A stretch of 64,000 nucleotides of DNA from Candidatus Magasanikiibacteriota bacterium (GTDB taxonomy: Bacteria > Patescibacteriota > Patescibacteriia > Magasanikbacterales > UBA922). The stretch covers positions 67 to 64,066 of the forward strand of contig JBPOIO010000001.1 of the NCBI GenBank assembly GCA_052034405.1, given 5' to 3'. Below are positions 25,855 to 55,619 of the stretch, in pieces (the stretch's first letter is position 1; each line of letters starts with the position of its first letter). A model generated the notes under the pieces. It had not been told where the DNA came from and ran no database searches. It saw nothing but the letters and a program-made list of their open reading frames with translations. Both the position numbers and the translations under genes were made by a program.

Positions 25855-27120
25855 TCAAGGCACAAGAAATCGAAAAACTTTGCGTAAACTTTCAACTACT
25901 TTTTGAGATCCCCCTGCAAGTACCGAAGCATGCTTTGTCTCAGGATTTTCAAGCATCAAACTTCCCCATTTTACAAGACCAATAGAAGGTGCAAAAGCAA
26001 CATCATTGGCTTTTTCTGTAACAGTGCGAATATCAAGAGGAAATCCCAAACTTGCGTTCATACGAAGTTTTTGTTTGGTAAGATCCACAAGCCCTGCAAT
26101 TTTTGCCCCACCTCCACTAAAAATAACTCCCGCGGGCAAAAGACCACTTCGATCAATGGATACAAGTTCTTTATCAATACGCTCCAAAATTTCAGATACA
26201 CGAGCATTGATAATTTCGGTAATATAAAATAAAGAAACTTCTTCGTGAGCAACCCCACCAAAGTCAAAAAGATCTACAACGTCATGTTTATTCACGGCTT
26301 TGGTATTGCAAGAACCAACTTCAATTTTTATTTTTTCAGCAACATCAATAGATGTTTGAAGCCCAAGCGCAAGATCATTGGTAATATGATCAGCACCAAT
26401 TGGTAATACGGCAGTATGAATCACATTTCCACCCTCATATACCAATAATGTCGTGGTCGAACCACCAAAATCCACAATAAGAACACCAAGTTCTTTTTGG
26501 CGTGGGGTAAGTACAGCATCGGCAGTAGCCAAAACAGATAATACAACATCATCAATCGTTACACTGGTACGATATACGGCCTTGGTTACATTTTTGAGAT
26601 GACTCGTGAGTCCATACACTGCCTGAGCTTCTACTTCAAGACGGATTCCAGTCATACCAACTGGATCTTTGATACCAAGCTGTCCATCCACCGAAAAATG
26701 TCGTGGAACAAGATGAAGCATCTCATAGTTAAGTGGTGCTGCAATGGTTTTTGCTGCTTCAATAGCTCGAACGACATCTTCCTCCGAAATTTCACCATCT
26801 GGTTTTGCCACAGCAACCACTCCTCGAGTCTTTTGAGATAAAATATGCATTCCAGAAATACCAATCCAAACATTTGTTATAGGACTTCCAGTCAAACGTT
26901 CAATTTGTTCAAGCGCATTTGAAACCGAAGAAACAGCCTCTTCAATACTCACAATCACACCCTTTTGTACACCTTCCGAAGGAACTTCGGCCGTAGCAAT
27001 GATTTGTAGCTCTTTTTTGCCATCGGCACGCATTCCCATTTGTCCAACAGCAACACGAACAGCACTTGATCCAATATCAAGGCCAGTAATAAGATTTGAT
27101 TGAGATTTTGATCGTGCCAT
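25855..27120 (-). CDS. ftsA: Cell division protein FtsA
   Basis: Actin-like ATPase DIGSSAVRVAVG...GGGA. Start at MARSKS (27120). Confidence 0.88.
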   Translation of the reverse strand: MARSKSQSNLITGLDIGSSAVRVAVGQMGMRADGKKELQIIATAEVPSEGVQKGVIVSIEEAVSSVSNALEQIERLTGSPITNVWIGISGMHILSQKTRGVVAVAKPDGEISEEDVVRAIEAAKTIAAPLNYEMLHLVPRHFSVDGQLGIKDPVGMTGIRLEVEAQAVYGLTSHLKNVTKAVYRTSVTIDDVVLSVLATADAVLTPRQKELGVLIVDFGGSTTTLLVYEGGNVIHTAVLPIGADHITNDLALGLQTSIDVAEKIKIEVGSCNTKAVNKHDVVDLFDFGGVAHEEVSLFYITEIINARVSEILERIDKELVSIDRSGLLPAGVIFSGGGAKIAGLVDLTKQKLRMNASLGFPLDIRTVTEKANDVAFAPSIGLVKWGSLMLENPETKHASVLAGGSQKVVESLRKVFRFLVP

Positions 27121-27136
27121 AGATAAATGCAGTATA

Positions 27137-27520
27137 TCAAAAAAAGAGAAAATTTTCAACTTGAAGATTCTTTATATAAGGCCAAAAAATACAAATTCCT
27201 ATAATAATACTCAGAAGTGAGGCCAAAAGAACGGCTCCTGCCATAATATCTTTGACCATTTTTACCTGCTCTGACAATCGAGGTTTTACCACATCAGCGA
27301 CATGTTCAATCGCAGTATTGATACATTCCAAAATAAGAATCAAAATAATCACGCTTGCCAGAAAAAGAAAACTCGTACCAGATATATGCAAAAAAATCCC
27401 CAAAAGAACTGCCAAAAAACCACAAAATAACTGAATACGAAAATTTTGTTCAGACTTGAAAACAAGTGCAATCCCACGAAGGGCGTATCCAAAACTTTTT
27501 TGAAGTTGTTTTATATTCAT
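27137..27520 (-). CDS. dgkA: Diacylglycerol/undecaprenol kinase DgkA family
   Basis: Three TM helices plus the ECINTAIEHVAD motif. Confidence 0.75.
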   Translation of the reverse strand: MNIKQLQKSFGYALRGIALVFKSEQNFRIQLFCGFLAVLLGIFLHISGTSFLFLASVIILILILECINTAIEHVADVVKPRLSEQVKMVKDIMAGAVLLASLLSIIIGICIFWPYIKNLQVENFLFF

Positions 27521-27961: not shown

Positions 27962-29176
27962 CTAAAGGGTTGAAGAGACAGTACTACTGTTCGTCGATAA
28001 AACATTACTCAAAGTACTTGTTAGGGTATTTGTACTTACTCCTGGTAAAATAATTTGGGCTGGAATTTCTATATTGGTTTTACCACTTCGAAAACTTTGC
28101 AACAATACATTCATAATATGAGGAAAGGCATTTTTTTCTTGTTCACCGTAAAAATAAACAACAGAATAAATGAATTTTGGAGTCTCAAAAAATCCTACTT
28201 GATTATCGCCACGTCTATATCCTGTTACTTGAAAACGATTTTGAAAAGATGAAAAAGCTGTAAAATTTTCTCCTGGCAAGTTACTGGCAAACCAACTTGC
28301 AAAAGACATTCCTTCGTCTTTTGGAAATACTCGAATTTCCATATAGTCTCCACTGTCGGCACTGAGCAAAACATCTTGCAAATCATTGGCTACAGGATCT
28401 ACTCTCCATGAAGATGGATAATAAAAACGATATTGATACGTAGGATTGATATACTCTTTCACCAACCCAGAATCAATAATTTTCTGAGGGGCAATCCCCT
28501 TTGGATTATACAAATTTGCTACTTCTTGACCATCATAATAACCATCTCGATCCGTATCATATACCTCTGGATCACTCAAAAAAATTTCTTCTTCTAAGTT
28601 TGTCAGAGTATCCGCATCTGAATCTTTGGAAGGTGCATAGGAAAGATGAGGAAGGATCAAAGATCCACCACCTCGAACAATTGGAGTTGAACTTGGAGTA
28701 CTACTCACAATTTCAATTGGAGCAGTGCTTGTCACAACAGGAAGTGTCACAATAGGCGAAGCTTGAAATGGCACAACACTTGTAAGCGTAGAAGGAGAAT
28801 TCGTATTTGTATCTTTCGGAGCCAAAACCATAAAATAAACCAGCGCCCCAATTCCCAAAAGGACCAACAAAGCAAGAAGGATAAAAATCATTTTTTTGGA
28901 CCCCGCAGCAGGTTTTTGCAAAGGCTTTTGCAGTGCTGCCTTTGGCGCTTGTACTCCTGGCTTTGGAGTAAGAGATGCACTTGGAGTAACAGCCGCAGCT
29001 TGTGGTGGTTTTGCTGCAAGAACTGGCTTTTTGACAAGAATAGATGCTGCTGTTTTTTCACTTTGATCTGGATAAATAACCGGATCAGAACCAGCATAAA
29101 AAGCACCCGGCATAGTTTCTATGCGAGCAGTAATAACAGGTGGCGGCGTTGTGTTATTTTCTTTTTTTCCAAACAT
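27962..29176 (-). CDS. Membrane-anchored surface protein with Pro-rich N-terminus, single TM, and C-terminal domain carrying a thrombospondin-type-3-like Ca-binding motif (paralog 1 of 3)
   Basis: TM helix MIFILLALLVLLGIGALVYFMVLA. Motif YDTDRDGYYDGQEVANLYNPKGI. Confidence 0.6.
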   Translation of the reverse strand: MFGKKENNTTPPPVITARIETMPGAFYAGSDPVIYPDQSEKTAASILVKKPVLAAKPPQAAAVTPSASLTPKPGVQAPKAALQKPLQKPAAGSKKMIFILLALLVLLGIGALVYFMVLAPKDTNTNSPSTLTSVVPFQASPIVTLPVVTSTAPIEIVSSTPSSTPIVRGGGSLILPHLSYAPSKDSDADTLTNLEEEIFLSDPEVYDTDRDGYYDGQEVANLYNPKGIAPQKIIDSGLVKEYINPTYQYRFYYPSSWRVDPVANDLQDVLLSADSGDYMEIRVFPKDEGMSFASWFASNLPGENFTAFSSFQNRFQVTGYRRGDNQVGFFETPKFIYSVVYFYGEQEKNAFPHIMNVLLQSFRSGKTNIEIPAQIILPGVSTNTLTSTLSNVLSTNSSTVSSTL

Positions 29177-29178
29177 AC

Positions 29179-30093
29179 TTAGAGTTGAATTTGTCCAGGA
29201 ACTTGAAGTGTTGAAGTACTTGTAGATGTTGCTGACAAAACAGAACTTGTGGAAATTGGAGCTACACCAAAAGAAGACGCTGTACTCGTTGAGGAAGTGA
29301 CAATGGTAATCAAAACAGGTACTGTACTTGAAGAAATACTACTCATTTCAGTAAGACGACCCGAACCATTTGGATTATAACCAGATTTTATTTCAGCCCC
29401 ATCTTTATAAGTATCCCCATCTGTATCTGAATTTTTTGGATTTGTATGCCAAATTAAAATTTCTTCGCCATCAGATAAATCATCACTATCCGAATCCCAG
29501 TTATTTGGATCTATTCCCAGTTCTTTTTCTCGATCGTCTTTGAGACCGTCACCATCACTATCGGCTACTTCACCCACAATAATTTCACGATCCACAGCAT
29601 CCGAAGACGTAGGTACAGTATCAAGAGAAGTAGTACTACTCACCGATACAAGATCAGCAGAGTTATTAAGAGCCGGAGCTGTATCAAGTGGAATAATAGC
29701 TGTATCTGCTGGTTTTTTTGTAAACAAAGTATATACAAACCAAGCAGAACCGAGCAAAACACAGGCAATCACCAAAGTCATAATAGTGACCATAATACCA
29801 TGACTCAACTTTGGTTCTTTCAATGTATTTTCAGATCCCATAATAACCGGAGGAGTCTCAATATTATTCATGGGAGGAACATTTATAGGAGCCTTTGGAG
29901 TCAAAATTCCAGCAGTGAGAGCAGAAGATGAAGACGAAACAGGAGGAATAGCCGCCATACTAGCAGGAGCAGGAGCCAAAGGTTCTGCATTCTCTGTTCC
30001 CTCAAAAATATCCGGTGGTTCCCCAAGTGGAAGATTGGAAGGTACAGAAGCTTGTGGAATTGATGGATGATCGTCAAACATACGAAGATACAC
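29179..30093 (-). CDS. Membrane-anchored protein with S/T-rich linker and tandem DxDxDG (TSP3-like) Ca-binding repeats ending GYNPNGSGRL (paralog 2 of 3)
   Basis: DSDGDGLKDDREKELGIDPNNWDSDSDDLSDGEEILIWHTNPKNSDTDGDTYKDGAEIKSGYNPNGSGRL. Confidence 0.6.
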   Translation of the reverse strand: MYLRMFDDHPSIPQASVPSNLPLGEPPDIFEGTENAEPLAPAPASMAAIPPVSSSSSALTAGILTPKAPINVPPMNNIETPPVIMGSENTLKEPKLSHGIMVTIMTLVIACVLLGSAWFVYTLFTKKPADTAIIPLDTAPALNNSADLVSVSSTTSLDTVPTSSDAVDREIIVGEVADSDGDGLKDDREKELGIDPNNWDSDSDDLSDGEEILIWHTNPKNSDTDGDTYKDGAEIKSGYNPNGSGRLTEMSSISSSTVPVLITIVTSSTSTASSFGVAPISTSSVLSATSTSTSTLQVPGQIQL

Positions 30094-30107
30094 TAAAATT
30101 GAAAGAC

Positions 30108-30572
30108 TTATGGTGTTGTTAATTTGCCAGAACCATTTGGATTATAGCCCTTAAAAACTTCATAGCCATCACTATAGCCATCTGCATCACTATCTGCTTT
30201 TTTTGGATCTGTTTTCCAGACATCAAGTTCGTCAGCATCCGAAAGCCCATCACCGTCACTATCAAAATCACGATTACTGAGTCCCAATTCTTTTTCTTTT
30301 TGGTCATCAACCCCATCACGGTCTTTATCATTTGGAAAAGGATCTACAACAACAGTACTACTTACCGTATCAAGAGAGCTTGTACTTGAAACATTTTCTG
30401 TATTTTGAGATGTATTATTTGATCCTGTTTTTGTATTTTTCTTTTGTACAAAAAACACGACAAGTCCAATAAGCAGTAAGACAAAAAACACGACAAGACC
30501 AATAAGCAGCAACTTTTTTCTAGATGAGCCTTCTGGTGAAATAGGAATTTGAGAATAATTTGCTTCTATCAT
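30108..30572 (-). CDS. Membrane-anchored protein with tandem DxDxDG (TSP3-like) repeats ending GYNPNGSGKL (paralog 3 of 3)
   Basis: DKDRDGVDDQKEKELGLSNRDFDSDGDGLSDADELDVWKTDPKKADSDADGYSDGYEVFKGYNPNGSGKL. The TM region carries an in-frame 33-bp tandem duplication. Confidence 0.6.
   Translation of the reverse strand: MIEANYSQIPISPEGSSRKKLLLIGLVVFFVLLLIGLVVFFVQKKNTKTGSNNTSQNTENVSSTSSLDTVSSTVVVDPFPNDKDRDGVDDQKEKELGLSNRDFDSDGDGLSDADELDVWKTDPKKADSDADGYSDGYEVFKGYNPNGSGKLTTP
30451..30516. repeat. 33-bp x2 in-frame tandem duplication inside the TM segment of the 154-aa gene (LLIGLVVFFVL/LLIGLVVFFVQ)
   Basis: aaaaaacacgacaag[t/a]ccaataagcag[t/c]aa appears twice in tandem. Confidence 0.8.
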
Positions 30573-30589: not shown

Positions 30590-33500
30590 CTATCGTTCAC
30601 GATTACATGGTTCACCAGGAACACGGCACAAAACGTCAGCAAATGATGTATCAACAGCACCATTTGGAAATTCAGTATTAAAGCCTGCTTCGTGAATTTG
30701 TCTCACTTCATATACACGATTTGCATTTTTTACCAAATTAAATACATGCCAATATTTTGCTATACCAGCATTCGCACTCGCAGTCGCACTACGAAGTGTA
30801 TATACATGTGTTGGCAAGTATAATGAAGATTCAGGGATTTGATCAGCTCTGTATTCATATATTTCTACCGTAACATCCAAATTATCAAAGGCAGAAATTG
30901 GTACGGTACTACTTCCACTAATAACTTCTACAAAGACTGCGTATGGAGAATTGTAATAACCATGATCCAATAAGCCCATACTATCCCCTGTTATAATTGT
31001 AGAAGCTTGTGCAGAAACACTCTGTAATGTTCCAGAATCATGCACAAATACAGATCCCTGAGTAATAAGATCTTGAGGGTTTCCATAAAAATCTTCACAA
31101 GCATCAGGTTGCCAATAATTAAAGATATTCAATCGTGCAAGATCCGCAATTTCAGCATTATTTAAACCATTATATACAGAAGTCATTCGAGAACAAAGAA
31201 AATTACGTCCACGATTTGCTCTATTACTCGAAAGAGCTTTCAATACATCAACACTCGCTGCAAAACGTTGTTCGGTTGTAGCATTAGCCCGCGCAGCATT
31301 TCCCAAAAAGTCGCGGTTATAAATCACAGGCGCAAAACTTACATCTGGTCCATCGGCGAAATGTTTCCATTTTACTACGACACGAAAAGTTCCCTGTGGT
31401 ACAGCTGGAGAAAGAACGAATTCATTGGCAATAGTTGTAAGTTCTGCATTTACAGGATATGGAAAAAATGATCCATACCGTTCATATTGCTCTTTAGCCC
31501 CAGCAACAGATAATTTTGTACTGATACTTGCATCGCTGCGATTTCCATTGAATTTGTCTGCTGTTACATCATCAAGATTAAAATAGGTTGCATATTGATC
31601 ACTACAGAGCAAATTTGTCTCAAGTCCACGAGCAATCGTTACTTTATTGGCACTCCAAGGACCAGCCTGCCGAGCAGAAGTTTTGTATCCATAATCACGA
31701 GCAAATGGAAAATTATGAATATTTGAAAGTAACCAAAATGATTGATTATAATCGGTTGTATTTACCCCCATTTCATAATTATGCCAACGAGTAGCAGCCG
31801 GCGCACTTGGATCTTCTTGAATAAAAACATTTTCGTTCTTCCAAGCCTCACTTCCACCGAGCGCTAATACTCCAGAAGCTGATGTTTTACTATTCACACG
31901 AAGCAAATAACGAGAAACAGAATTTGCCCAAGACGTATTTACATTATTTGCTCCGGGATTATTGATATCTTGTGGAGTCAAAACATTCAAGACAGCAATC
32001 TTTGGAGTAGCTTTTCCTCTATTATCTGAAGTTGTACAACTCACACAATTTGTCACCAAATTTTGACAATTATTTTCACATGTATAGGTTCCCCTATCAG
32101 CACAAATTGCAGGACGGTCGTCATTATTATAGAAAATTCTTAATGCTGTAGTATTTGCATTTGCAGGAGCATTATTTCCACCAGGAATAATTACTTGATT
32201 GGTAACAGGATCAATATCACAAACCTCTGGCTGTGCGACATTATTTATCTTTGAAAGACGAGAATCAATATCAATTTTACCATTTCCACAACTATCCAAA
32301 GGATCTTGAGTAAGTACTTTCTTACAATCACCAGAACAATAAGTGCAAGTTCGGCCATATTCCGACTCACAAGCTTGACCATTACTTGCCCCAGTATCAC
32401 AAACTTCCCCAGCATCTACAACAGCATTTCCGCAAGAACCAGCAACAGCTACCTCAGCGACAACATTGGGACGTAAACCATCACAGTGAATACGAACATC
32501 TTTATTAAGAGATGAATTCAAAATTTGTGCACATTGATCACCTGCGAGTGCTACCCAACCAAGATCCCCTACTACACCAATATTTCTTTTGGCTACAGAT
32601 TGACACTCAAGTCCAAATCCACGACAAATAGCATCCCCCGTAGTATTTATACATTCACTTGTAGTTTGATCATTATACGTAATTTTGACCAAAGTATCAT
32701 CTGTTCCAGGAGCGTTTCGATCAAAATGTGAAGTTGGATCTGTATGATCAATTGAAATTTGAGCTTGAGGAATTTGCTGAGCACAAGCAATATTCTCTAC
32801 TTGACAGAATTTACTGCAACCATCAAGACGATTGGTATTCCCATCATCACAAGTTTCATCAGAAATTTGAAGAATAGAATCTCCACAATAACCTCCACGA
32901 GCTTGACAATCCAAAGAACAAGATAATTGTTGTGTAATATAATAAGTTGGGTCATTAACAGAAACACAAGTATCACCAACATTTGGACAAGAAAAATTTG
33001 GACCAATACATATTGTACCGGATTTTTTACAATAACCAAAATTTACAAACGCAGGGTCAGCTTTATCACAATTTTCCAAAGAAGCTTCATTCGGATCTTT
33101 TACCCCATTATGGTTTTGGTCGTTAAAATTTATAATGGCATCACCACAAAATCCAGCATTGATATGAGCCGCATCATTTTGTGGTCCTGGAGGAGTACAA
33201 GCCAAAGAACAATGACCGTAACTACCATTGAGATTTCCGTCGTCACAAGTTTCACCCGCATCAATATGTCCATTTCCACAATTTGCATTGGCTCGACAAA
33301 CAGGAGCATCATACTGACAAGCGGCATTACAAGTATGATACGCTGTTTCACCCTGTCCACAAACAAGACCTGCTGCCCCACCCGCAACAGATGAAGTTCC
33401 TGGAGGATCACAAGCTTCACCAATATCTCGAATACCATTTCCACAGTTTCCAGCTACAGGTCGCAAAACTTCGAGACCTTGTTCACCACAAGAAGAGAGT

Positions 33501-36500
33501 GAAGTACTATAATGTGTTGTAGAAACCATTCCTTGGATAATACCTCGCTGATTAGCATTATTCATGTCAAAATATTCAAGAGGCAAATAGAGAGAATAAT
33601 GATTTGCATCAACTCCTTTATATTCAAGGACACTTGACTGAGCAGGGCAACTAAATGTTGCATCAGTACTATTCCAACAAGTCTGACTATCATCTGGTAA
33701 AATACATTTTGCAGGAGCAGCACCACAATCAGTATCTGTAGAACAAGCAACTTGACGACCGTTTTGTAAAGCTTCACAGTGTCCACAAGCACTCCATTGA
33801 TTCAATTCTGGCTCTGCTACATTACCAACAGCAGTAAGCAAACGTCCCCATGATGGCCAATGAGTATTGGTATAACCTGGGATATACGTACCTGCTGGCA
33901 AAAGTGGATAGGTACCATTTGCACTACGATAATCTTCGATTTTGTTTTCCAAATTCTGGATAGTATTGAGACGACTCCAATCTCTTTGAAATTTGCTTTT
34001 TGCATTTGCACAAATTCCATTTGTTGTTGACGTTGGAGTACCCAAGATCGTACGACACTCAAAATCATTTGTACAAGAGACAGAACTTACAGGAAGACTG
34101 TTAATATTTGCTGGAACATACTGACCAGCATCTCCATTTCCAGAAAGACAACTTTGTCGTTCAGAAATATTGATATTGAATATAAAGTGAGCCATGAATT
34201 TTTCCAAAACCTGTCTTGTATTTGCCTGAGCATCAGAATTTATACCAATCAAATAAATATAATTATGTACTGTTTTATCCTCAAGTTCATTGAGTACATT
34301 AATATAAGTATTATTTCCATCACTTATAGCATCATAACCATCTACAATAATGTCACGATATTTTTCAATTCCAGAAAAACCTTGCTCAATAAACCACTCT
34401 CGAGCTGAAGAACGATTTCCATTGGCAAAAACCTGAATACCAATAACATCATCGTTTTTATCATTGAAGAACAAGAATTTTTTGAGGGTTCCCTCTGGAA
34501 GATTGCTGTTGACAGCAGGTGCAACCCCAAGACACTGCTGTTGTCTAATTTGATTGAACGCGAGAATACCACGACATTCACCAACATTGTGACAAACTTT
34601 TCCATCAACACTACAATGGCCAACACTAGCCGCCAAATTTCCTTGAACCATAGGTCGCAAAAGTGGAAGGTCATCTGTTTTATCTCCAGAATTACCACTA
34701 TCCGCACAATAACCTGTACTAAAATTAAGGCTTACGAGTTTTCCACCCAAATTGATTTTTGGAATAGAAGCTCCATCAAAGATTTTTTTACTAAGATTGA
34801 AATGATCGTTATTGAAATTTCCAGCACCCAAACTTACACCATCTTCATATGGATAAGTAATTTGTGTTGGCCATGGATTTTCACAGAACATAGCAGTAAG
34901 ATTGCTTAGTCCAGCAAAAACACGACCAGTTTCTACATTTGTAGTATCAGCAGTAATAGCTATTTGTGCAGAAGCGACAATTGTACCTTCAAGATCTTTT
35001 GATGAAATTCTAATTCTATCAGTATTTACAATAGCAGGAAAAGTAAACAGACTATTATTACGAGGTTCCCAAGACCACTGCCAAGCATAACTTGGAGTAC
35101 TCACAATAAGAGCCCCCGTAGTACTTTTTACAGAAGCCACGAAGTCATGATTTGTATTGGGACGAGTAAATAAGTAACTTGAAGGATCAATATCAACGTC
35201 CTGAACTCGACAGATTTGACTTCCTGTTTCAAAAACAAAGATATCATCTGTGTGGAAACGATTGTTGTTATTCAAAAATACATTTCCTTGAATACCCACA
35301 CCATTTATATCTCGAATACCGCTATTTCCTCCACGAAGTACCACTGCATAAATAGTATTTGCTTCAAGAAGATCATTGACAGTAATATTCATACGAGTAG
35401 TCGTCGGAGCTCCTACATGTTCTAGTGGAATCACATCGATTTTTGGTACAATTTTCCCAGTACACCACACAGTACCTTTATTCGAAATCATATTCACCAA
35501 GTGAACTCCTACCTCAGCATGAACAACAGAGTTGAATACATCCACAAAAAATTGTTTTACATCACTCCAAATTCGAGCAAAAAGACCTGGTACTTGCTCA
35601 CCTCCAGAAAGAGCCAACAATGATCCAATTTCAGAAGTAACTTCTGTTTCATTAGCACTCGCACAGACATAACCTGCAGGATGTAAACTTGCAACAAGCA
35701 CAGAATTTGAAATTGTTTTTTCATCAATTTCACGATTAAATTCTGCAGCAATAAGAGAATTACGACAAACTTTATTGGCCTCCACAACTTCTCCAATACC
35801 AGTACCATTCAAAGGAAGTTCGCTTGTTCGAGTAGGACGAGCTTGACAACAAGAATTTGTACCTACACCCTGATTAGCATCAGGACAGTTATTGCTACGA
35901 GCAACACCATTTTCTACAATCGGAGTAGGATATTCCACATAACCACACTGAAGTGAATAGTCACCTTTTCCAATAATATTTCTCGCACGAAGAGATTCTG
36001 TTGTGGTTGCATTTTTTCGAACTTGAGTTGCTTGGACTTGAACCTTTGCTTCTTGCATCAAAGTAAGAGGATTTACCAAACCTTGACCAATAGCTGTAAC
36101 CACCTGAATAGGATCTTGATCAAATCCAGGATCAGCTACCAGATTAGCAGGTTCACAACGTGGATTTTCACCAAGTTCAGGAAGACCATTTCCACAAAGA
36201 GATGGAGTATCATAAAGTCCGGAAGAACCATGTTTTGTACAGTCACTATTACAACCAGCTGTTCCTGATTCACAACTGAAGTCACTTGAAATATTTGCTT
36301 TTATATCACAGATATTTTGTAAAACACAGCGATTTGTACAAGTAGTAGAAGCAGATGCTACCTCAATAAGGTCAATATTACCATTTGGAAGAACAACTTT
36401 TATGTGACGAGGCTCTGTTGTTTTTTCACATTCTTCACCTGGATCCAAATTTCCATCTCCACAAATAGTTGCAGAATTAAGACATTCAGAGGATTGTTTT

Positions 36501-39500
36501 TGATCACGAGTCAAATTGCTATGATTAGCAGGACAATTTGCTGCTTCACAAAGTGGTGCTTCACAATAAGCACGTGCCATTTTGGTACCAAGATGCAAAC
36601 AATTTTCTGAACAACCAAGAGCCGACCAAGAAGGATGTGCCCCAGCTTCTGCAAGTGAAATACCCAAATCACAATCTTCTCCCAAAAGGGCCAGTCCCCC
36701 ATCAGCAAGTCCAACTTTTCCATTTCCACATTGAAGTGAACCTACAGCATCTGAAAATTTTTGACTACTTCCCTTCCAAGTACAAGTATTTGTACAATAA
36801 TCTTTTTCTCCAGGAATACCAGGATCACATTCTTCACCAAAATTTGGTTCAAGAACTGCATTTCCACACAAACCAAGAACTGATTGATCTGTTGATGTTG
36901 TAAAATGTATATTTCCAGGACGCAAACAATTCAAAGTACAACTTACACCTGGAATTTCTCCAAGAGTTGCAACATCACAATCTTCCCCAGGATCAACTTG
37001 GGAATTCCCACAAAGATATGCTATTTGACCAAAAGGAATATCACTTCCAGCAGGAAGACAATTTCCACTACAATAAGCATAAGGACTTCCTTTGGTAGAA
37101 AAACCAGTTGTTGTTGCTACTTGCTGAGCTTCATTAACAGGAAGATCATCGGCACCTAATACAGTCCAATTCCAACCATAAGCCCAAGGATTCAAGCGCT
37201 GCCCAAGAGGACTACATTGATCTGGAGCACTCAGTGGTGATGCACCATACGCAGTTTTTTGACCAACAAGACTTGCTACAAAAGGACTTGGAACGACATC
37301 TACTTTATCCAAAATACAAATACCATCTTTTTCTTTTGTACGGAATTTCCAAACTTTTGGAGCAACTGCTTTTCCATCAATAGCTTGACCTCCAAGAGTA
37401 CCACCAAAAGCAATAACTTGATCGGTTAATGTAACTTGATACAAAGTATTCACATCCAAAGTTCCATCGACTGTAATTTCATATTGAAAAGGATCAAAGG
37501 CAGCAGCATTCACATCATGAAACGCCAAAGGTGCTTCTGGATTTTGACAATTTTCACCTATATCAAGTGGACCTGCACATTTTTGTACTTTCAAAGCACC
37601 ATGATAGGTATTGGTTTTCATTGGGAGATTGAATCTCACACCAATATTTACATTAGTACAAGACTGGTTACACTGTGGCCACCATTGTACTGCTTTTGGA
37701 TCACCAGGTTGTATAAACAAATTACTACTTCCTGTTACAACTTTATGAACACCATCAACTACAGTATCAGCAGAAGCAGTAATTACAACAGGGTCATTAG
37801 CAGTATTTTTGAGAGCAGTAACCGTAGCACGAATACTATCTGCATACAAAGAACTTGTTGTTGGAACATCTTTTTTGTCAGAACGAACAGCATATGCCAT
37901 ATCAGATAAGAGATCTTCTTCATTACCCTGTCTTGGTTTCCATTCAAAACCTTTTCCATTTACATCAACAACACTACAAGCTTGGCTTCCTCTTCCCCAA
38001 ACAAAGTAGTAAAAAGGATGTGCTGGAGCATCAAAATTGTCTGACAAAGGAAATGCTGGATTCTGAACCATTCCCAAAAGATGCGTTGTGTATTCTGGTG
38101 GGGTAATAGCCGCACCAAAAAGTGAACATGCTGCATTACTTGTTTTGAAATCAAAATTATAAGCAGCAGTAATTCCATTTACTGGAGCTGGCAAAGTTCT
38201 CTGCAAAGATAAAGGCGATGTATTTATTTTATTATTTCCAAATTCAACAAGACCTGGTTCATTGGCATGAAGTGTATTTCCCAAAATAACACGATGCCAA
38301 GTACCTGCTCTATGAGATGCTCCAGGAGCAAGTCTCAATTCCAAAATATCTGTTTGATTTCCTCCCAAAAATCCTACACTATATTGTCCTGTTACATCAT
38401 CAGCAGGAAGATATTTACAATCAGGTTTATCACCTTGTCCACAGGTATACACACGTACCGCAGAGTTCAAATTTACTTCAGACATGTGCATATTAAATTG
38501 CACCGTGATAATACTGTCAGTACAAGCATCCCCTACTCCCCAATTTTGCCAAGGTGAAGGTGAAGGACGAACAAAATTATCGATATTCAAATCTTGCCAG
38601 TCTGCAATATTACAAGCTTCAAGAACACGAGGAACATGTGGAATAAGCCCTGTGGTAAAACGCCAAACATAACCAGCCGAACGAGTTTCGCCCACACAAG
38701 CAAAAGCCTGAGGTTTCCACAAACCTTTTTCAGGACCATTTGTACAACATTGATAACCTACTCCAGGGGCATCTCCACCCAAAGTACAATCTGCAACATT
38801 ATATTGAACACTATTACTAAACTCATTTCCAGCACGAGCAAGAATTGGACCCGTAATCATAGAAACACCGGTGTTGTCAACAGGAAGCACGGTTTCAATG
38901 GTTGTTCCATCATTGGAGACACGACGGATGACATTATTGCCAAGCGGATCTTTATTATTTGAAGAAGTAAGCCAACGAGAATTTATACTCCAAAAATATA
39001 ACTCTGGATTTTGTGTCAAATTAATACCGGTAAGAATCAAAGGTGAAGCATTATTTGGAAGAGGTGCTACTCCAATATTTGGATTGATACGACAAAGCCC
39101 AGGAAGTGGATTTCCAGGAAGAAAAGTAATATTACTTGTTCCATCAGAATGATGATTAGAATCGTTTTTTACAACAACATAATACTTTCCAAGTTGGATT
39201 CCAGATGGAATTTTTCCAATAATTTGATTATCACTCCAAGTATCTCCACAGGCTTCTGGCAAAGTTGCCAAATCAAGACGTGCACAAGCAGCTTCAACAG
39301 CAGCATCTGATGTTCTTGCACAATTGAGTGCCGCATCTGCACTTGCTGCTATATATACCACTCCATGTCCACCAAAACGAGCACCGCTAATGGTAAGCAA
39401 ACTTCCAAGAGTAGAGGTCTGCGAAGGAGAAAGTGCATCAATATGTGGGACAAGATCAGCATCTCTATCAACAACAATAAATTCAACACCATTGGTAAAA

Positions 39501-41521
39501 GAATCGCCAATTTTTGCACGAACGCCCACACGTCCTGGAGACATGTTTTGAGGAACAGAACTCAAAATAGTTGCTTCATTCCATTGACGGATCGGAGCAT
39601 TGACTCCACCAAAAAGAAGCGCACTATTATTGCCACCATTTCCAAGTCCACGACCAAAGGCAGTCACTGGAGCACTTGATGATGCAATATTGGTATTTGT
39701 TGGACCAAGAACAGCACAAAGTCCAGGATGATCGTTATTACTCATTTTGAAAATACCAGCATTTGGACCAGCTTTTGGACCATGATCATCGTTACTCAAA
39801 TCTTCGTAAGCTGGTTTATCCCCTGCTGCACGAGTTTTGATACGAATTGTAGTACTTGTACCAACAGGAAGGTTTGGAATTTCTACAATCACCATGTTGT
39901 CATGCCATACATCAAGTCCATTACAAGAAGCAAATGGAGCAGGAACCCACTGATCAATACTACCATCAGCATTATTATCAATACCAAAATCTACAGAACC
40001 AGAATCTTCACCAAAAAAATTACCCAAAATAGTTGCCCAACTTCCGGGAGCACCATCCCAAGAACTTGGACTTGCACCACCGACATCAACATCCCGAATA
40101 ATAGGTCGATTCACACAAGAACCATTTTGACAATCACCACTTACACACTGCCAATTGGCATTACAAGCTCCATCACCAAGACATTTTCCACCAATATCAA
40201 TAGCTGTTTCGCCAGCATCCTGACGACCATTGTGACAAAGATCTCCATCAAGTACAAAACTTGAAGTTGCGACGGTAATATTGTGATCAATATCTGCAAC
40301 AGTGAAAGTCAAATTATACAAAGCAGGAACCGAAGCATCGGAAGCAAAAACAAGATCTTGATTCAAAGAAAAAGCTTCGTTTGAACCGCTACGAGGGCCA
40401 GAATAATATGACCAATTTACTTTTTCTCCAGCAGGATCTCTTGGTTCACTTTGAACATTCAAAGCAAGATAAGAAATACCTCCAAAAGAAATATTTTGAC
40501 CATCTTCTTTACGGCGATCTTCAAATGTTGCATTGAGATGATATTTTGCATTTCGAGGAACAATCTGCCCTTCTCTTGTATTTTTTCCATTAAAGGTAAT
40601 AGAATCAGTAATTGGAGAAAGAAGATCCAAGAAATCTCGGTTTACATTAAAAAGTGATGTTGTATCAAAAATTCCACAAGCCAATTTTGTTTGGAGTTTG
40701 AGTCCCCCGGCAACAAGATCAGGATTCACTTCAACTTTATATTCTCCAGGAGAAAGACAACTACGAGTGTCACCATCAGCATTACAAAGATTTGTGTCCT
40801 CACCAAAAAAGGCTTCTACGACCTGTCTACCAGGAAGTATTTTTATTGATTTTACAGGAATAGTATTGCTTCCTTTTGAAAGTTTGAAAATTTTATTTTT
40901 ATCTTGATTTTCATCAAGTGGACGACTAAACACAGCACGAACGATGGTATTACTCATACCTGTACCACTATTTGTTGGTGTTCGAGGAGTCAAACTTTTG
41001 ACCACAAAGGCATCGTCACCACACTCACGAGGACCCCCCGCTACTGCCTGACAGTCGGCAAAGTTGGCACAAGCAGGAACTCCTCCACGAACTCCCCCAC
41101 CATCATTAACAAGTCCCCCACTTCCCGTTGCCATGGCTAAACGTGAAATAATAAACTGTGTAATAGCAAAAGAAGACATGATAATAGCAAGTCCAATAGT
41201 AGCGTTAATCAATGTTTTTTTTGCACTCGCAATTTTTTCTTCGTTTCCACCACTCGTCATCCAGGTAAAACCAGCATACAAAATCAAAGCAACAGCAATA
41301 ATTCCCAAAAGACTAAGCGCAATACGAATAATCTTGGCAGCAATAACACGAATATCTTCACCACCAAGCGGAAGAAGACTTCCTACCTTTTGAAGTCCAA
41401 AAGGTGCATTTCCAGCCTGTGCAGAAACGTGATTAAAAGCAAGGAAAATACCACCCAAAAAGAAAACAGAAAAAAGAAAAAGAAAATATTTGCGTTTAAA
41501 TAAAGTGCCAACAAAATGCAT
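30590..41521 (-). CDS. Giant (3643 aa) surface protein: signal peptide plus T4SS-pilin-like (VirB2/TrbC-type) two-helix N-terminal domain fused to an extracellular region with many Myxococcus-type Cys-rich repeats
   Basis: Uninterrupted 10.9-kb ORF. N-terminal IRVIAAKIIRIALSLLGIIAVALILYAGFTWMTSGGNEEKIASAKKTLINATIGLAIIMSSFAITQFII has the helix-loop-helix pilin pattern. Repeats include CGNAVLEPNFGEECD, CGDGNLDPGEECE, CGNGHIDAGETCDDGN, CGDSILQISDETCDDGN and CGNAVVDAGEVCD. Confidence 0.85.
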   Translation of the reverse strand: MHFVGTLFKRKYFLFLFSVFFLGGIFLAFNHVSAQAGNAPFGLQKVGSLLPLGGEDIRVIAAKIIRIALSLLGIIAVALILYAGFTWMTSGGNEEKIASAKKTLINATIGLAIIMSSFAITQFIISRLAMATGSGGLVNDGGGVRGGVPACANFADCQAVAGGPRECGDDAFVVKSLTPRTPTNSGTGMSNTIVRAVFSRPLDENQDKNKIFKLSKGSNTIPVKSIKILPGRQVVEAFFGEDTNLCNADGDTRSCLSPGEYKVEVNPDLVAGGLKLQTKLACGIFDTTSLFNVNRDFLDLLSPITDSITFNGKNTREGQIVPRNAKYHLNATFEDRRKEDGQNISFGGISYLALNVQSEPRDPAGEKVNWSYYSGPRSGSNEAFSLNQDLVFASDASVPALYNLTFTVADIDHNITVATSSFVLDGDLCHNGRQDAGETAIDIGGKCLGDGACNANWQCVSGDCQNGSCVNRPIIRDVDVGGASPSSWDGAPGSWATILGNFFGEDSGSVDFGIDNNADGSIDQWVPAPFASCNGLDVWHDNMVIVEIPNLPVGTSTTIRIKTRAAGDKPAYEDLSNDDHGPKAGPNAGIFKMSNNDHPGLCAVLGPTNTNIASSSAPVTAFGRGLGNGGNNSALLFGGVNAPIRQWNEATILSSVPQNMSPGRVGVRAKIGDSFTNGVEFIVVDRDADLVPHIDALSPSQTSTLGSLLTISGARFGGHGVVYIAASADAALNCARTSDAAVEAACARLDLATLPEACGDTWSDNQIIGKIPSGIQLGKYYVVVKNDSNHHSDGTSNITFLPGNPLPGLCRINPNIGVAPLPNNASPLILTGINLTQNPELYFWSINSRWLTSSNNKDPLGNNVIRRVSNDGTTIETVLPVDNTGVSMITGPILARAGNEFSNSVQYNVADCTLGGDAPGVGYQCCTNGPEKGLWKPQAFACVGETRSAGYVWRFTTGLIPHVPRVLEACNIADWQDLNIDNFVRPSPSPWQNWGVGDACTDSIITVQFNMHMSEVNLNSAVRVYTCGQGDKPDCKYLPADDVTGQYSVGFLGGNQTDILELRLAPGASHRAGTWHRVILGNTLHANEPGLVEFGNNKINTSPLSLQRTLPAPVNGITAAYNFDFKTSNAACSLFGAAITPPEYTTHLLGMVQNPAFPLSDNFDAPAHPFYYFVWGRGSQACSVVDVNGKGFEWKPRQGNEEDLLSDMAYAVRSDKKDVPTTSSLYADSIRATVTALKNTANDPVVITASADTVVDGVHKVVTGSSNLFIQPGDPKAVQWWPQCNQSCTNVNIGVRFNLPMKTNTYHGALKVQKCAGPLDIGENCQNPEAPLAFHDVNAAAFDPFQYEITVDGTLDVNTLYQVTLTDQVIAFGGTLGGQAIDGKAVAPKVWKFRTKEKDGICILDKVDVVPSPFVASLVGQKTAYGASPLSAPDQCSPLGQRLNPWAYGWNWTVLGADDLPVNEAQQVATTTGFSTKGSPYAYCSGNCLPAGSDIPFGQIAYLCGNSQVDPGEDCDVATLGEIPGVSCTLNCLRPGNIHFTTSTDQSVLGLCGNAVLEPNFGEECDPGIPGEKDYCTNTCTWKGSSQKFSDAVGSLQCGNGKVGLADGGLALLGEDCDLGISLAEAGAHPSWSALGCSENCLHLGTKMARAYCEAPLCEAANCPANHSNLTRDQKQSSECLNSATICGDGNLDPGEECEKTTEPRHIKVVLPNGNIDLIEVASASTTCTNRCVLQNICDIKANISSDFSCESGTAGCNSDCTKHGSSGLYDTPSLCGNGLPELGENPRCEPANLVADPGFDQDPIQVVTAIGQGLVNPLTLMQEAKVQVQATQVRKNATTTESLRARNIIGKGDYSLQCGYVEYPTPIVENGVARSNNCPDANQGVGTNSCCQARPTRTSELPLNGTGIGEVVEANKVCRNSLIAAEFNREIDEKTISNSVLVASLHPAGYVCASANETEVTSEIGSLLALSGGEQVPGLFARIWSDVKQFFVDVFNSVVHAEVGVHLVNMISNKGTVWCTGKIVPKIDVIPLEHVGAPTTTRMNITVNDLLEANTIYAVVLRGGNSGIRDINGVGIQGNVFLNNNNRFHTDDIFVFETGSQICRVQDVDIDPSSYLFTRPNTNHDFVASVKSTTGALIVSTPSYAWQWSWEPRNNSLFTFPAIVNTDRIRISSKDLEGTIVASAQIAITADTTNVETGRVFAGLSNLTAMFCENPWPTQITYPYEDGVSLGAGNFNNDHFNLSKKIFDGASIPKINLGGKLVSLNFSTGYCADSGNSGDKTDDLPLLRPMVQGNLAASVGHCSVDGKVCHNVGECRGILAFNQIRQQQCLGVAPAVNSNLPEGTLKKFLFFNDKNDDVIGIQVFANGNRSSAREWFIEQGFSGIEKYRDIIVDGYDAISDGNNTYINVLNELEDKTVHNYIYLIGINSDAQANTRQVLEKFMAHFIFNINISERQSCLSGNGDAGQYVPANINSLPVSSVSCTNDFECRTILGTPTSTTNGICANAKSKFQRDWSRLNTIQNLENKIEDYRSANGTYPLLPAGTYIPGYTNTHWPSWGRLLTAVGNVAEPELNQWSACGHCEALQNGRQVACSTDTDCGAAPAKCILPDDSQTCWNSTDATFSCPAQSSVLEYKGVDANHYSLYLPLEYFDMNNANQRGIIQGMVSTTHYSTSLSSCGEQGLEVLRPVAGNCGNGIRDIGEACDPPGTSSVAGGAAGLVCGQGETAYHTCNAACQYDAPVCRANANCGNGHIDAGETCDDGNLNGSYGHCSLACTPPGPQNDAAHINAGFCGDAIINFNDQNHNGVKDPNEASLENCDKADPAFVNFGYCKKSGTICIGPNFSCPNVGDTCVSVNDPTYYITQQLSCSLDCQARGGYCGDSILQISDETCDDGNTNRLDGCSKFCQVENIACAQQIPQAQISIDHTDPTSHFDRNAPGTDDTLVKITYNDQTTSECINTTGDAICRGFGLECQSVAKRNIGVVGDLGWVALAGDQCAQILNSSLNKDVRIHCDGLRPNVVAEVAVAGSCGNAVVDAGEVCDTGASNGQACESEYGRTCTYCSGDCKKVLTQDPLDSCGNGKIDIDSRLSKINNVAQPEVCDIDPVTNQVIIPGGNNAPANANTTALRIFYNNDDRPAICADRGTYTCENNCQNLVTNCVSCTTSDNRGKATPKIAVLNVLTPQDINNPGANNVNTSWANSVSRYLLRVNSKTSASGVLALGGSEAWKNENVFIQEDPSAPAATRWHNYEMGVNTTDYNQSFWLLSNIHNFPFARDYGYKTSARQAGPWSANKVTIARGLETNLLCSDQYATYFNLDDVTADKFNGNRSDASISTKLSVAGAKEQYERYGSFFPYPVNAELTTIANEFVLSPAVPQGTFRVVVKWKHFADGPDVSFAPVIYNRDFLGNAARANATTEQRFAASVDVLKALSSNRANRGRNFLCSRMTSVYNGLNNAEIADLARLNIFNYWQPDACEDFYGNPQDLITQGSVFVHDSGTLQSVSAQASTIITGDSMGLLDHGYYNSPYAVFVEVISGSSTVPISAFDNLDVTVEIYEYRADQIPESSLYLPTHVYTLRSATASANAGIAKYWHVFNLVKNANRVYEVRQIHEAGFNTEFPNGAVDTSFADVLCRVPGEPCNRER

Positions 41522-41545: not shown

Positions 41546-43657
41546 CTAGCCACCCGCTTGTACAGGCTGCAAAGGACTAATATCATTACTCTTTAGAGTA
41601 TTGATACAGGTTGATGTACTTGCAGATGTTCGAGGAAGTGCTGGATTTGTATATTGGACACAACCTGTATCTTGGTTGGCAGTGAAATTTTCTGGAAAAT
41701 TCACACATCCAACGTTGGCAACAACATTACCATCACTATCTTCACTATAAGTACAAACAGGAGAATCCGCGCCTTGTGGACGAACAGCTGTCCAAGGACC
41801 ACGACCAGGGTAAAAACAATTTTGTGTAATACTTTTTATACTACTTGGAATAATTGGGAAATAGTAAAAATTAGTTCCCTCTGGGCCAAATTTACGATGA
41901 TCAATTGTTACTATACTTTTATTATCAACAAGAGAAGTATCTGGTCGAAACCAAATATCACCAAGATTCGCAAATGCGGCATTTTGACCTACCAAAGTTG
42001 CTGGAAGTGGATATTCTTCCAAACTTATTTCTTCTAAACTTAAATTGGAAACACGTTTACTAAAATATAATTGAAGTGGTGCCGCCTGAGAAACACTCTC
42101 TGCATCAAGATTTGGTGTAACCTTTTCAAGAGAAGGAGCTGTTCTATCAATAGTATTTGAAATATTAAATCCCCAATAGTAATTGTCTGGATTTTTTTCT
42201 GCATCATGAATAATTTTTGGTTCATTTTGGACAAAACCAGCGCGATGTGGCTCGGCCAATTTTCCATCAGCAACATTGAGAGGACCATTGTCAAGTGCAT
42301 TTCCAGCCATATCCATAAGACCTGAAAAAGGTACGGCTTCAAAAGAGTTTCCTGCCAAAGTCAAAGCAGTACGAACAAGAACTCCATAGGAGTTGGCACA
42401 ATCAGCATTGCCAGCACAGTCAACAGGGAGACAATACATGGTCTGACCACAGCTATTTTGACCACAAGGAATATCAGAGGTAAACTCAAGTGTTTTGTAG
42501 CCATTGGAGATACGCCAATTTCCTGTAATAGTAGCAGAAGCAAAAATAATATTTGAAAAAGGTGAATTTTGACCACTCATTCCTTGGGCAACCAAAGGAT
42601 CAACAGGTTCACTGAAGTTGATTTGAACAAGACTATTTCGAGCCTCTGTAGCATTGGCATCTGGATAAACTGAAGTTACCGAAGGTGGTATTTTATCTTC
42701 AATCGTATCTGTCTGAAAAATCCAAGTATAGTGACCATGTCTATCACTTGAAAAAGCAGAAGTTTTTCCATCTTTTTTCAAGATAGAACGTGTCAAATCA
42801 ACAATATATTTTATTTTTACTTGATCACTACCGAGTGAAACAAGAGGACGAAATATAAATGTTAAAGCTTCACGATTTGGACCTTCAAAAGTAGTGAGCG
42901 CTGCCGCTTCTACAGAAGGAGTCGAAGTACTTCCTTTGATGTTGATTTTTACACTCGAAGTATTGAGCTGATCACAAAATTGTCCACTCCAATCAAATTG
43001 AGCATCATTCACATTGATACAATCTCCGAATATTTGATTATTATTGGTATCTTTAATAAGAGATGCAGGGTCGATTGCTTCACGAAATGTTACCACAATG
43101 CGAGTATTTCGAGGTACATCTTCTTGGTCACGAAGTGGATAATGGTCTTTTACAATACGACCAAGAGCACCGGACGCAGTATAAGAGTCAAAATTGAGTG
43201 CAGCACGCCCACCAGAACCATTGTCACCAAGCCCACTGCCTGTAGCATCGGAGAGAGCATTCAAAATAAACTGAGTAATGGCAAGAGAAGACATGATAAT
43301 AGCAAGACCAATAGTTGCATTGATCAATGTTTTTTTGGCAGTTCCAATCTTTTCTTCGTTTCCTCCACTCGTCATCCAAGTAAAACCTGCGTACAAAATC
43401 AAAACAACAGCAATAAGACCGAGGAGACCAAGACCAATACGAATAATCTTGGCAGCGATAATACGAATATCTTCACCACCTAAAGGAAGAAGACTTCCTA
43501 CTTTTTTTACACCAAAAGTGTCGGCTTGCGCAGAGGCAATCGACGCAAAACAAAAAATAAAAAAAGTGACTAAAAACAAACATGCGATCGTTTTAATCAC
43601 TTTTTTATTATTTCTTTTGTACAAGCGAATCCAAGGAAGCATGGGACCTGGACTCAA
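41546..43657 (-). CDS. 703-aa surface protein: same T4SS-pilin-like N-terminal domain as the upstream giant gene, fused to a different extracellular region with an SbsA/Big-like Ig domain
   Basis: N-terminal ~120 aa about 85% identical to the 3643-aa protein (GFTWMTSGGNEEKIGTAKKTLINATIGLAIIMSSLAITQF). Ig-like signature KIPPSVTSVYPDANATEARNSLVQINFSEPVDP. Confidence 0.8.
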   Translation of the reverse strand: MSPGPMLPWIRLYKRNNKKVIKTIACLFLVTFFIFCFASIASAQADTFGVKKVGSLLPLGGEDIRIIAAKIIRIGLGLLGLIAVVLILYAGFTWMTSGGNEEKIGTAKKTLINATIGLAIIMSSLAITQFILNALSDATGSGLGDNGSGGRAALNFDSYTASGALGRIVKDHYPLRDQEDVPRNTRIVVTFREAIDPASLIKDTNNNQIFGDCINVNDAQFDWSGQFCDQLNTSSVKINIKGSTSTPSVEAAALTTFEGPNREALTFIFRPLVSLGSDQVKIKYIVDLTRSILKKDGKTSAFSSDRHGHYTWIFQTDTIEDKIPPSVTSVYPDANATEARNSLVQINFSEPVDPLVAQGMSGQNSPFSNIIFASATITGNWRISNGYKTLEFTSDIPCGQNSCGQTMYCLPVDCAGNADCANSYGVLVRTALTLAGNSFEAVPFSGLMDMAGNALDNGPLNVADGKLAEPHRAGFVQNEPKIIHDAEKNPDNYYWGFNISNTIDRTAPSLEKVTPNLDAESVSQAAPLQLYFSKRVSNLSLEEISLEEYPLPATLVGQNAAFANLGDIWFRPDTSLVDNKSIVTIDHRKFGPEGTNFYYFPIIPSSIKSITQNCFYPGRGPWTAVRPQGADSPVCTYSEDSDGNVVANVGCVNFPENFTANQDTGCVQYTNPALPRTSASTSTCINTLKSNDISPLQPVQAGG
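43230..43525. repeat. ~300-bp dispersed repeat: 5' coding regions of the two pilin-domain genes (second copy 41130-41425), ~85% nt identity
   Basis: Long runs of identity, e.g. ttcttcgtttcc.ccactcgtcatcca.gtaaaacc and aatacgaataatcttggcagc, seen in both copies. Confidence 0.75.
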
Positions 43658-55600: not shown

Positions 55601-55619
55601 CGGTACAACTCAAAAATAT

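Follow-up and report, generated by a model that had tools for sequence, protein, structure and literature searches.

Three conserved membrane proteins with calcium-type TSP3 loops between pilin-domain giant genes and ybeY-dgkA-ftsA in Magasanikbacteria

The three genes analyzed here lie in a 64,000-nucleotide stretch of DNA (hereafter: the window) from Candidatus Magasanikiibacteriota bacterium (GenBank assembly GCA_052034405.1, contig JBPOIO010000001.1, positions 67 to 64,066 of the forward strand). According to the listing of open reading frames (ORFs), the interval 27962-30572 of the window consists of three consecutive ORFs on the minus strand, P1 (30108..30572, 154 amino acids (aa)), P2 (29179..30093, 304 aa if read from the GTG at 30093) and P3 (27962..29176, 404 aa). 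P1 is preceded at a distance of 17 bp by the gene of a 3,643-aa protein (giant 1), P1 and P2 are 14 bp apart (26 bp if P2 starts at the conserved ATG at 30081, see below) and that between P2 and P3 is 2 bp; the short gaps after giant genes that had been noted in an earlier interpretation of the DNA letters (hereafter: the sequence-only reading) were thus borne out by measurement. P1, P2 and P3 are ancient and not interchangeable, and they are parts of an envelope module that is conserved in Magasanikbacteria and in Patescibacteria related to them.

P1 and P2 add two new members to a repeat family that is already known. Both exceed the gathering score of the Pfam family TSP3_bac (PF18884; P1: 39.9 bits, P2: 33.0 bits, cut-off: 25) with two stretches each, the best of which in P1 (residues 104-126) spans the full 22-residue model, and PF18884 is annotated on all P2 orthologues in the precomputed Pfam column. 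The window P3 gave no match to this family at E <= 1; 8 of 54 members of the P3 family match it weakly (best E-value: 6e-4). The sequence-only reading had proposed repeats of the thrombospondin type 3 (TSP3) kind, to be matched by TSP_3 (PF02412) or OmpA-like profiles, and the proposal holds for the bacterial TSP3 profile and not for the other two: the eukaryotic PF02412 is not among the matches of P1-P3 at E <= 1, and the repeats are devoid of cysteines; the OmpA domain (PF00691) is absent from the Pfam results of P1-P3 and is carried only by non-orthologous matches of P2. The earlier statement that no catalytic motif is present was upheld, with no enzyme family of Pfam or NCBIfam matching any of the three proteins.

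The repeat unit is a 12-residue DxDxDGxxDxxE loop resembling the EF-hand, followed by a helix, and is present in three copies in P1, three in P2 and two in P3. The Pfam models of EF-hand and dockerin gave no match in P1-P3; loop-helix pairs are shared with dockerins, and no cohesin-like partner was identified for the trio. The phmmer search of the predicted extracellular calcium-loop module of P1 (residues 82-150; 30123..30329, minus strand) against the Protein Data Bank (PDB) reported the EF-hand-like region of the staphylococcal protein Bap (7c7u, 7c7r) and then, weakly, lanmodulin and centrin. In the structure search, the calcium region of Bap was the only solved structure to match the repeat units (36-43 residues, root-mean-square deviation 0.5-0.9 Å, 37-42% identity); the likeness concerns the loop-helix units, whereas the match covers only one to two of them and Bap is a secreted biofilm protein. 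From their sequence, the loops of P1-P3 would be expected to bind calcium and thereby to become rigid. P1 and P2 can be aligned over membrane segment, stalk and repeats (38% identity, E-value: 2e-24), and P3 shares with P1 and P2 about 44 residues, comprising the second loop and the YNPxG tail (E-values: 9e-9 and 8e-11). The portrayal of the trio as paralogues built on one plan is accordingly valid for the loop module and fails for the remainder, as P2 and P3 have heads of their own and P3 carries an additional PsbP-like domain.

P1 comprises a short N-terminal head, a membrane segment (residues 21-42), a Ser/Thr/Asn-rich stalk, three calcium-type loops (residues 82-93, 104-115 and 127-138) and the tail GYNPNGSGKL. 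The alignment of residues 127-149 (DSDADGYSDGYEVFKGYNPNGSG) with the preceding unit 104-126 (DSDGDGLSDADELDVWKTDPKKA) places GYNP at the position of KTDP, and thus the motif is the tail of the last repeat. Two of the proteins had been thought to end with GYNPNGSG(K/R)L; this is true of P1, which stops three residues past the motif and is the only one of the three to have it near the C-terminus, whereas in P2 the motif is followed by a further 57 residues and P3 has the variant LYNPKGIAP. Direct reading of the sequence shows that the membrane segment of P1 is encoded by two 33-bp direct copies (30447..30512, minus strand), which were not reported by Tandem Repeats Finder and were confirmed from the sequence letters. 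The copies (30512-30480 and 30479-30447) are identical in 30 of 33 positions, all three differences are synonymous, each copy encodes LLLIGLVVFFV, and both together make up the entire membrane helix. In the sister species L079 (P3 83% identical; L numbers denote the loci compared in this work) P1 likewise has 154 aa, with a nearly identical second half of the helix and LILIITAGIVL as the first half, which implies that in the window a copy of the second half took the place of the first. The in-frame duplication of the sequence-only reading therefore exists as a replacement in place; a lengthening of the helix is ruled out by the equal length of P1 in L079 and by the more distant orthologues, in which the length of the membrane helix is unchanged.

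P2 is likely to start at the ATG at 30081 rather than at the GTG of the ORF listing; the resulting 300 aa equal the length of the NCBI protein P0121, and M1, F2, D3 and D4 of this form are invariant in 33 orthologues. In the 300-aa numbering, P2 is composed of a head, a membrane segment (residues 95-120), a stalk, three loops (residues 174-185, 196-207 and 219-230), the motif GYNPNGSGRL and a Ser/Thr-rich C-terminal tail of 57 residues. The AlphaFold2 (AF2) model comprises a helix at residues 92-121 and three loop-helix units with a predicted local distance difference test score (pLDDT) of ~90. The head opens with MFDDQ... in the consensus, and its N-terminal motifs MFDD... and NLPxGEPxDIF (30004..30081, minus strand) were defined from the invariant columns of the 33 orthologues and from a consensus of 62 sequences; a second motif, SALxAGxLxPK, was found in the orthologue alignment at residues 53-63 (29893-29925, minus strand).

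P3 represents an unnamed family that joins TSP3-type repeats with a PsbP-like fold. The homologue search identified 182 full-length homologues, the nearest named relatives being Candidatus Magasanikbacteria, and one orthologue (P0065) bears the NCBI name "thrombospondin type 3 repeat-containing protein"; no Pfam family is assigned to P3. The N-terminal part contains a head with the motif IxTMPxxFYxGxDPVIY, a Pro/Ala/Lys-rich linker, a membrane segment (residues 96-119) and a Ser/Thr/Pro stalk; the C-terminal part contains two loops (residues 185-196 and 207-218), LYNPKG, a globular domain and a Ser/Thr tail. The family alignment has 33 invariant columns, and in the head, whose consensus is MFGKK...IxT(I/M)PxxFYGGxDPVIY, P23, F26, Y27 and P32 are invariant. 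No other ORF of the fetched loci possesses the head motifs of P2 or P3.

The AF2 model of P3, built from a 54-sequence alignment, has a pLDDT above 90 for approximately residues 180-370, and in this model the C-terminal globular domain (residues ~231-372; 28061..28486, minus strand) has the PsbP/Mog1 alpha-beta sandwich fold. The top seven Foldseek matches to PDB structures (E-values: 1e-4 to 9e-4, probability: 1.0, template modelling scores (TM-scores) normalized by target: 0.33-0.57) include CyanoP (2lnj, 2xb3), BT_1490 (3hlz), Apa of Mycobacterium tuberculosis (5zx9) and PsbP; the wider set of matches (E-values up to 9e-3, probability: 0.94-1.0) also contains 1v2b, 7pi0_P and 1eq6. Plant PsbP, Mog1p, Tsi3 and SciW were likewise among the Foldseek matches. 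The similarity to PsbP, CyanoP, Mog1 and DUF1795 is one of fold and does not amount to membership at the sequence level: the window P3 is not matched by the Pfam PsbP family (PF01789), one of 54 relatives matches it weakly (E-value: 1.1e-3), and a profile of the domain gave no match among PDB sequences. A further difference from the PsbP family is that the domain is part of a protein with TSP3 loops and a membrane anchor and that its bacterium is not photosynthetic. A profile search with the domain in 1.84 billion representatives retrieved 1,262 clusters (E-value below 1e-30 for 183), and among the matches listed (the best 150 of the 1,262) all clusters have the P3 architecture. The PsbP/Mog1 fold is usually a protein-binding module.

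Each of the three proteins is single-pass, with one membrane helix. The N-terminal anchor assigned to all of them by the sequence-only reading is correct for P1; in P2 and P3 it does not come until about residues 95-120 and is preceded by heads of about 95 residues with conserved motifs, which are predicted to be cytoplasmic, with the repeats probably outside the cell. The Ser/Thr/Pro-rich stalks stood up to scrutiny: the combined Ser, Thr and Pro content is 44%, 34% and 47% for the stalks of P1, P2 and P3, the stalks are 35-65 residues long with a Ser/Thr/Pro- or Asn-rich composition, and AF2 models them as disordered. The C-terminal location of the DxDxDG repeats was retained for P1 and P2 and has to be amended for P3, in which the two loops are followed by the globular domain of ~140 residues. 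A conserved C-terminal sorting motif was sought in the orthologues of P1-P3 and was not found.

The conservation of the trio was analyzed in a scan with the P3 alignment, limited to one genome per species, which yielded 75 loci, 64 of them with a full P3 orthologue; ORFs were called in these loci and searched with the window proteins, and the counts include only loci with sufficient flanking sequence. P2 is directly upstream of P3 in 60/60 loci, P1 is upstream of P2 in 53/55 (it is missing in L028 and L058), and a homologue of giant 1 is upstream of the trio in 51/51. The predicted co-occurrence with pilin-fused giants was therefore found in every species-level locus that could be scored, and it extends to divergent lineages (see below). 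On the other side, ybeY, dgkA and ftsA follow the trio in all loci except L041, which is without ybeY. A hydrophobic membrane segment is present in every orthologue of P1, P2 and P3, and the number of loops is characteristic of each family (three in 46/55 P1 and 60/61 P2, two in 64/67 P3). Since P1, P2 and P3 can each be traced through more than 50 species as a distinct set of orthologues with family-specific motifs, the three are ancient separate families, and a recent tandem duplication of the trio was rejected as an explanation.

The median identity to the window proteins is 47.5% for P1, 35.6% for P2 and 35% for P3 (42% for its C-terminal domain), compared with 45% for YbeY, 45.5% for DgkA, 56.5% for FtsA and 31.5% for giant 1. 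The pace at which the trio evolves is thus that of housekeeping genes and slower than that of the giant, which fits the role of a fixed structural partner better than a fast-evolving role in host recognition. The median gaps along giant, P1, P2 and P3 are 15, 23 and 11 bp; those of P3-ybeY, ybeY-dgkA and dgkA-ftsA are 6, -4 and 29 bp. In the window, the genes downstream of P3 were identified by Pfam as ybeY (27517 to ~27942), dgkA (27137-27520) and ftsA (25855-27159), all on the minus strand and in the conserved order, with ftsZ (24375-25727) after ftsA. The listed ybeY ORF (162 aa, start at 28005) overlaps the end of P3 by 44 bp, while orthologues have 141-151 aa; the true start is probably the ATG at 27942, leaving a 19-bp gap to P3 as in the sister species L079.

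More distant Patescibacteria were reached by a metagenome scan with the P2 alignment, which returned 80 loci, 30 of them containing ybeY. A TSP3 gene is immediately upstream of ybeY in all 30, and a P3-like gene is present in 28. Many of these loci come from distant lineages (P3 E-values: 1e-13 to 1e-30), among them L099, whose FtsA is assigned by NCBI to Candidatus Buchananbacteria. The block is reduced here: a large or pilin-domain gene (product of 136-3,200 aa) is followed by one or two TSP3 genes, in most cases by a P3-like gene, and then by ybeY, by dgkA if the locus has it, and by ftsA. All six upstream pilin-homologous genes with a visible N-terminus begin with the pilin domain and encode from 136 to 2,938 aa (L108: 2,938 aa; L120: 1,511 aa; L125: 853 and 1,926 aa; L135: 1,874 aa; L154: a free-standing pilin of 136 aa). 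In L154, a GC-rich locus from a clearly different lineage, the order is lepB, hisS, HIT, pilin, an S21-like ORF, a P2-like TSP3 protein, ybeY, dgkA and ftsA; the ORF between the pilin and the TSP3 gene we take, from reading by eye, to be ribosomal protein S21. The extension fused to the pilin domain varies from none to more than 3,000 residues and the number of TSP3 genes from one to three, so that what stays constant across this distance is a pilin-domain gene at one flank and ybeY-dgkA-ftsA at the opposite flank. The core of the head motifs persists in the divergent lineages as MF[DE]...(E)PEDI[FL] for the P2 type and [IV][HY][VT]MPxx[FY] for the P3 type.

A second arrangement was seen in the short contigs L110 and L119, where a TSP3 membrane protein is encoded between genes resembling segments of giant 1; in L110 (3-3788) and L119 (2-3630) separate ORFs similar to residues ~1500-2900 of giant 1 flank the TSP3 protein of 273-278 aa. 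Some divergent lineages, represented by L103 (6039-9722) and L126 (3065-6841), encode an extra large protein of 1,227-1,258 aa between the giant and the TSP3 genes, with a clear VWA domain in L126 and weak matches to VWA and to the eukaryotic-type TSP_3 in L103.

The genes upstream of the trio encode giant 1 (30590..41521, minus strand, 3,643 aa), with a signal peptide, a T4SS_pilin-like N-terminus, Big_5, TIG and Cys-rich acidic repeats, and giant 2 (41546..43657, minus strand, 703 aa), for which Pfam reports a T4SS_pilin-like N-terminal domain and Big_5. Both exceed the gathering score of the T4SS pilin family (PF18895; giant 1: 31.3 bits, giant 2: 31.9 bits, cut-off: 26.6), and giant 1 also that of the Cys-rich acidic repeat TIGR02232 (36.7 bits, cut-off: 20.8). 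The N-terminal 140 aa of giant 1 match free-standing pilins of 120-190 aa with up to 70% identity. Over 122 residues, the pilin domains of giant 1 (41102-41521) and giant 2 (43200-43657; both minus strand) have 74% identity and thus constitute one shared anchor module; each is preceded by a signal-peptide-like segment ending in SAQA, and the remaining parts are unrelated in length. In the close relative L082 (2111-4146), between yqeY and a 3,643-aa giant, the counterpart of giant 2 is called as two genes, for a 143-aa pilin, 70% identical to the N-terminus of giant 1, and for a 516-aa Big_5 protein; the gene may be genuinely split, or the break may come from a frameshift or an error of assembly. 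The Magasanikbacteria-type contig L080 (5427-15711), and likewise L081, contains 13 T4SS_pilin genes (127-494 aa) in an array that is interrupted by an SBP_bac_1 gene. Further upstream than the giants, Pfam identified yqeY, hisS (44461-45915) and signal peptidase I (45926-46546) in the window; signal peptidase I and hisS are also upstream of the pilin-domain gene in L154 (6019-8014), which indicates that the synteny reaches beyond the genes studied here.

We tentatively favor, at somewhat less than even confidence, the interpretation that P1-P3 span the membrane and serve, in a calcium-dependent manner, as accessory or anchor proteins of the pilin-domain surface proteins. Within the wall zone, at a height of a few nanometres over the membrane, the three proteins would assemble into a calcium-dependent platform that holds, positions or helps to assemble the surface proteins encoded immediately upstream, of which the sole constant feature is a membrane domain of the VirB2-like pilin type; through their motifs, P2 and P3 would tie the platform to a cytoplasmic partner, as conserved peptides on the cytoplasmic side imply a conserved intracellular one. 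The platform is preferred because the adjacency to a pilin-domain gene survives big changes in both and recurs in a second arrangement, and because the trio is conserved like a structural component. A single surface-structure operon with the giants, as suggested in the sequence-only reading, would be in keeping with the gene order.

Several observations weigh against the platform. In tightness and in conservation, the junctions to ybeY, dgkA and ftsA equal the one to the giant, so synteny by itself does not decide whether the trio goes with the giants or with the division cluster, and since lepB-hisS are syntenic even in the distant L154, the linkage could be an inherited gene order. TSP3 proteins occur elsewhere in Patescibacteria with no giants nearby, and the free-standing pilin arrays of L080 and L081 have no TSP3 neighbour. 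For P1 and P2, the charges on either side of the membrane segment leave the orientation undecided. Finally, the promoter and terminator scan of 25.5-44.5 kb was at chance level (52 vs 54 and 17 vs 12.4 in shuffled sequences, respectively, with the intergenic gaps empty) and is uninformative on operon structure.

Some of the same observations lend weight to a different, somewhat unlikely explanation, according to which the three proteins are independent calcium-binding spacers of the wall or surface layer, with no specific partner among their neighbours and with a gene order that simply reflects inherited synteny where small genomes rearrange slowly. The whole region from lepB-hisS to ftsZ is indeed syntenic even in a distant lineage, TSP3 proteins without giants do exist elsewhere in Patescibacteria, and the non-orthologous matches of P2 are mostly OmpA-family proteins, in which TSP3 commonly serves as a periplasmic linker. 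However, lineages differ in how many TSP3 genes they have and in how large the pilin-fused gene is, and the adjacency is nevertheless kept; it also recurs in a different arrangement (L110, L119), and the conserved cytoplasmic motifs together with the protein-binding fold argue for specific partners.

The main rival to the platform, conceivable at a slightly lower probability than the spacers, is that the trio consists of bitopic proteins of the divisome or of envelope growth, whose head peptides dock onto FtsA, FtsZ or another division protein of the cytoplasm and whose ectodomains act in the wall zone, an architecture that would be analogous to FtsN or FtsQ. The order P3-ybeY-dgkA-ftsA-ftsZ is conserved with the tightest gaps of the block (medians given above), the conservation is at the housekeeping level, the cytoplasmic motifs are deeply conserved, and the plan of a head peptide, a membrane helix, a long disordered linker and a globular domain resembles that of FtsN. 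Nonetheless, Pfam and NCBIfam revealed no POTRA, FtsQ/DivIB or SPOR domain in P1-P3, the ectodomain of P3 is PsbP-like, and the pilin-domain gene is equally constant upstream. Moreover, ybeY-dgkA is an old gene pair unrelated to division, so the adjacency to ftsA may be incidental. The head motif of P3 was also compared with the C-terminal peptide of FtsZ of this genome (EIPAFIRRK), and the resemblance was judged too loose to be used. A combination of this explanation with the platform appears improbable: the trio would act as a trans-membrane coupler, its ectodomains gripping the pilin module while the peptides of P2 (MFDD...EPEDIF) and P3 (VMPxxF/Y) dock onto FtsA or FtsZ. To our knowledge, no such device coupling pilins to division has been described; if it existed, an ultra-small episymbiont could use it to align the placement or the inheritance of its attachment organelle with the site of division.

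Apa of M. tuberculosis is a PsbP-fold protein that binds fibronectin. The idea that the trio, chiefly P3, acts as adhesins binding a host cell or substrate via the PsbP-like domain appears the least probable of all: the fold is similar to that of Apa (5zx9), a surface location is predicted and an episymbiotic lifestyle is expected for this group (PMC11665869), but stalks of 35-65 residues would leave the domains far below the giants of 3,600 residues, and the P3 domain, with its many invariant columns, is conserved at the housekeeping level across lineages with presumably different hosts.

Patescibacteria make up a large share of bacterial diversity, most of them are thought to be attached to other cells, and the construction and anchoring of their surface structures are very poorly understood. 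The trio is a conserved membrane-spanning set with no described function across Magasanikbacteria, Buchananbacteria and related lineages, and it offers experimental handles in the calcium-loop modules, the protein-binding domain and the two invariant cytoplasmic peptides. If it anchors or positions the giants as proposed, its members would be the first accessory factors known for such surface proteins; if not, it is still a lineage-wide envelope component worth naming.

The bacterial TSP3 repeat (PF18884) is reported to be, for example, the linker of OmpA-family proteins (Dai et al. 2017, as cited in later work). The trio shares with bacterial TSP3 proteins the 22-23-residue repeat with its DxDxDGxxDxxE loop and GTDP-type tail, the predicted calcium binding and the likewise predicted location outside the cytoplasmic membrane. 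It differs from the OmpA-type ones in the absence of a beta-barrel, of the OmpA peptidoglycan-binding domain and of cysteines in the repeats, in its anchoring by a single N-terminal helix in a bacterium expected to have one membrane, and in the conserved cytoplasmic heads of P2 and P3 and the PsbP-like domain of P3. In Myxococcus xanthus, the surface receptor TraA, which has Cys-rich repeats, and the TSP3-containing TraB are encoded in the same operon and form a 1:1 complex (PMC3325183; PMC12045341). Similarly, giant 1 has the myxobacterial-type Cys-rich repeat TIGR02232 and adjoins TSP3 genes; however, TraB has an outer-membrane barrel and OmpA, and TraA has PA14 and MYXO-CTERM, none of which was found here, and the likeness is an analogy of organization, not protein homology. 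A survey of type IV secretion in Patescibacteria reports VirB2-like pilins and pilin arrays (PMC12102498); its passages containing the terms pilin, VirB2, giant or Magasanikbacteria (TSP3 was not among the terms) make no mention of the giants. The giants share the T4SS_pilin domain with such arrays, whereas the arrays examined have no TSP3 neighbour. A preprint on giant genes mentions bacterial TSP3 repeats only inside giants of Omnitrophota. Searches of the literature on thrombospondin and pilin in Patescibacteria, on PF18884 and on giant surface proteins of Magasanikbacteria returned no description of the module, and as far as these searches show, both the conserved set and its position are undescribed.

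A few further observations were made in the window and in the compared loci. In other Patescibacteria (L071: 8823-10693; L074: 7499-10672; L068 and L070), secreted TSP3 proteins were found next to, or at a distance of a few kb from, a gene whose product has the motif (F/L)DVGQGD(A/S), which by eye reads as a ComEC-type metallo-beta-lactamase domain. A fourth TSP3-like motif in the window, in the ORF 52032-52631, belongs to ClpP and was dismissed as a chance match. The ORF at 963-6440 (minus strand) encodes 1,825 aa with no Pfam match at E <= 0.01, and the G+C content around it climbs to 0.43-0.53, compared with ~0.38 elsewhere. The region 55514-55807 contains three adjacent tRNA-Ser genes, all confirmed as tRNAs by Rfam, to the first of which ARAGORN assigns the anticodon ACT, unusual for bacteria.

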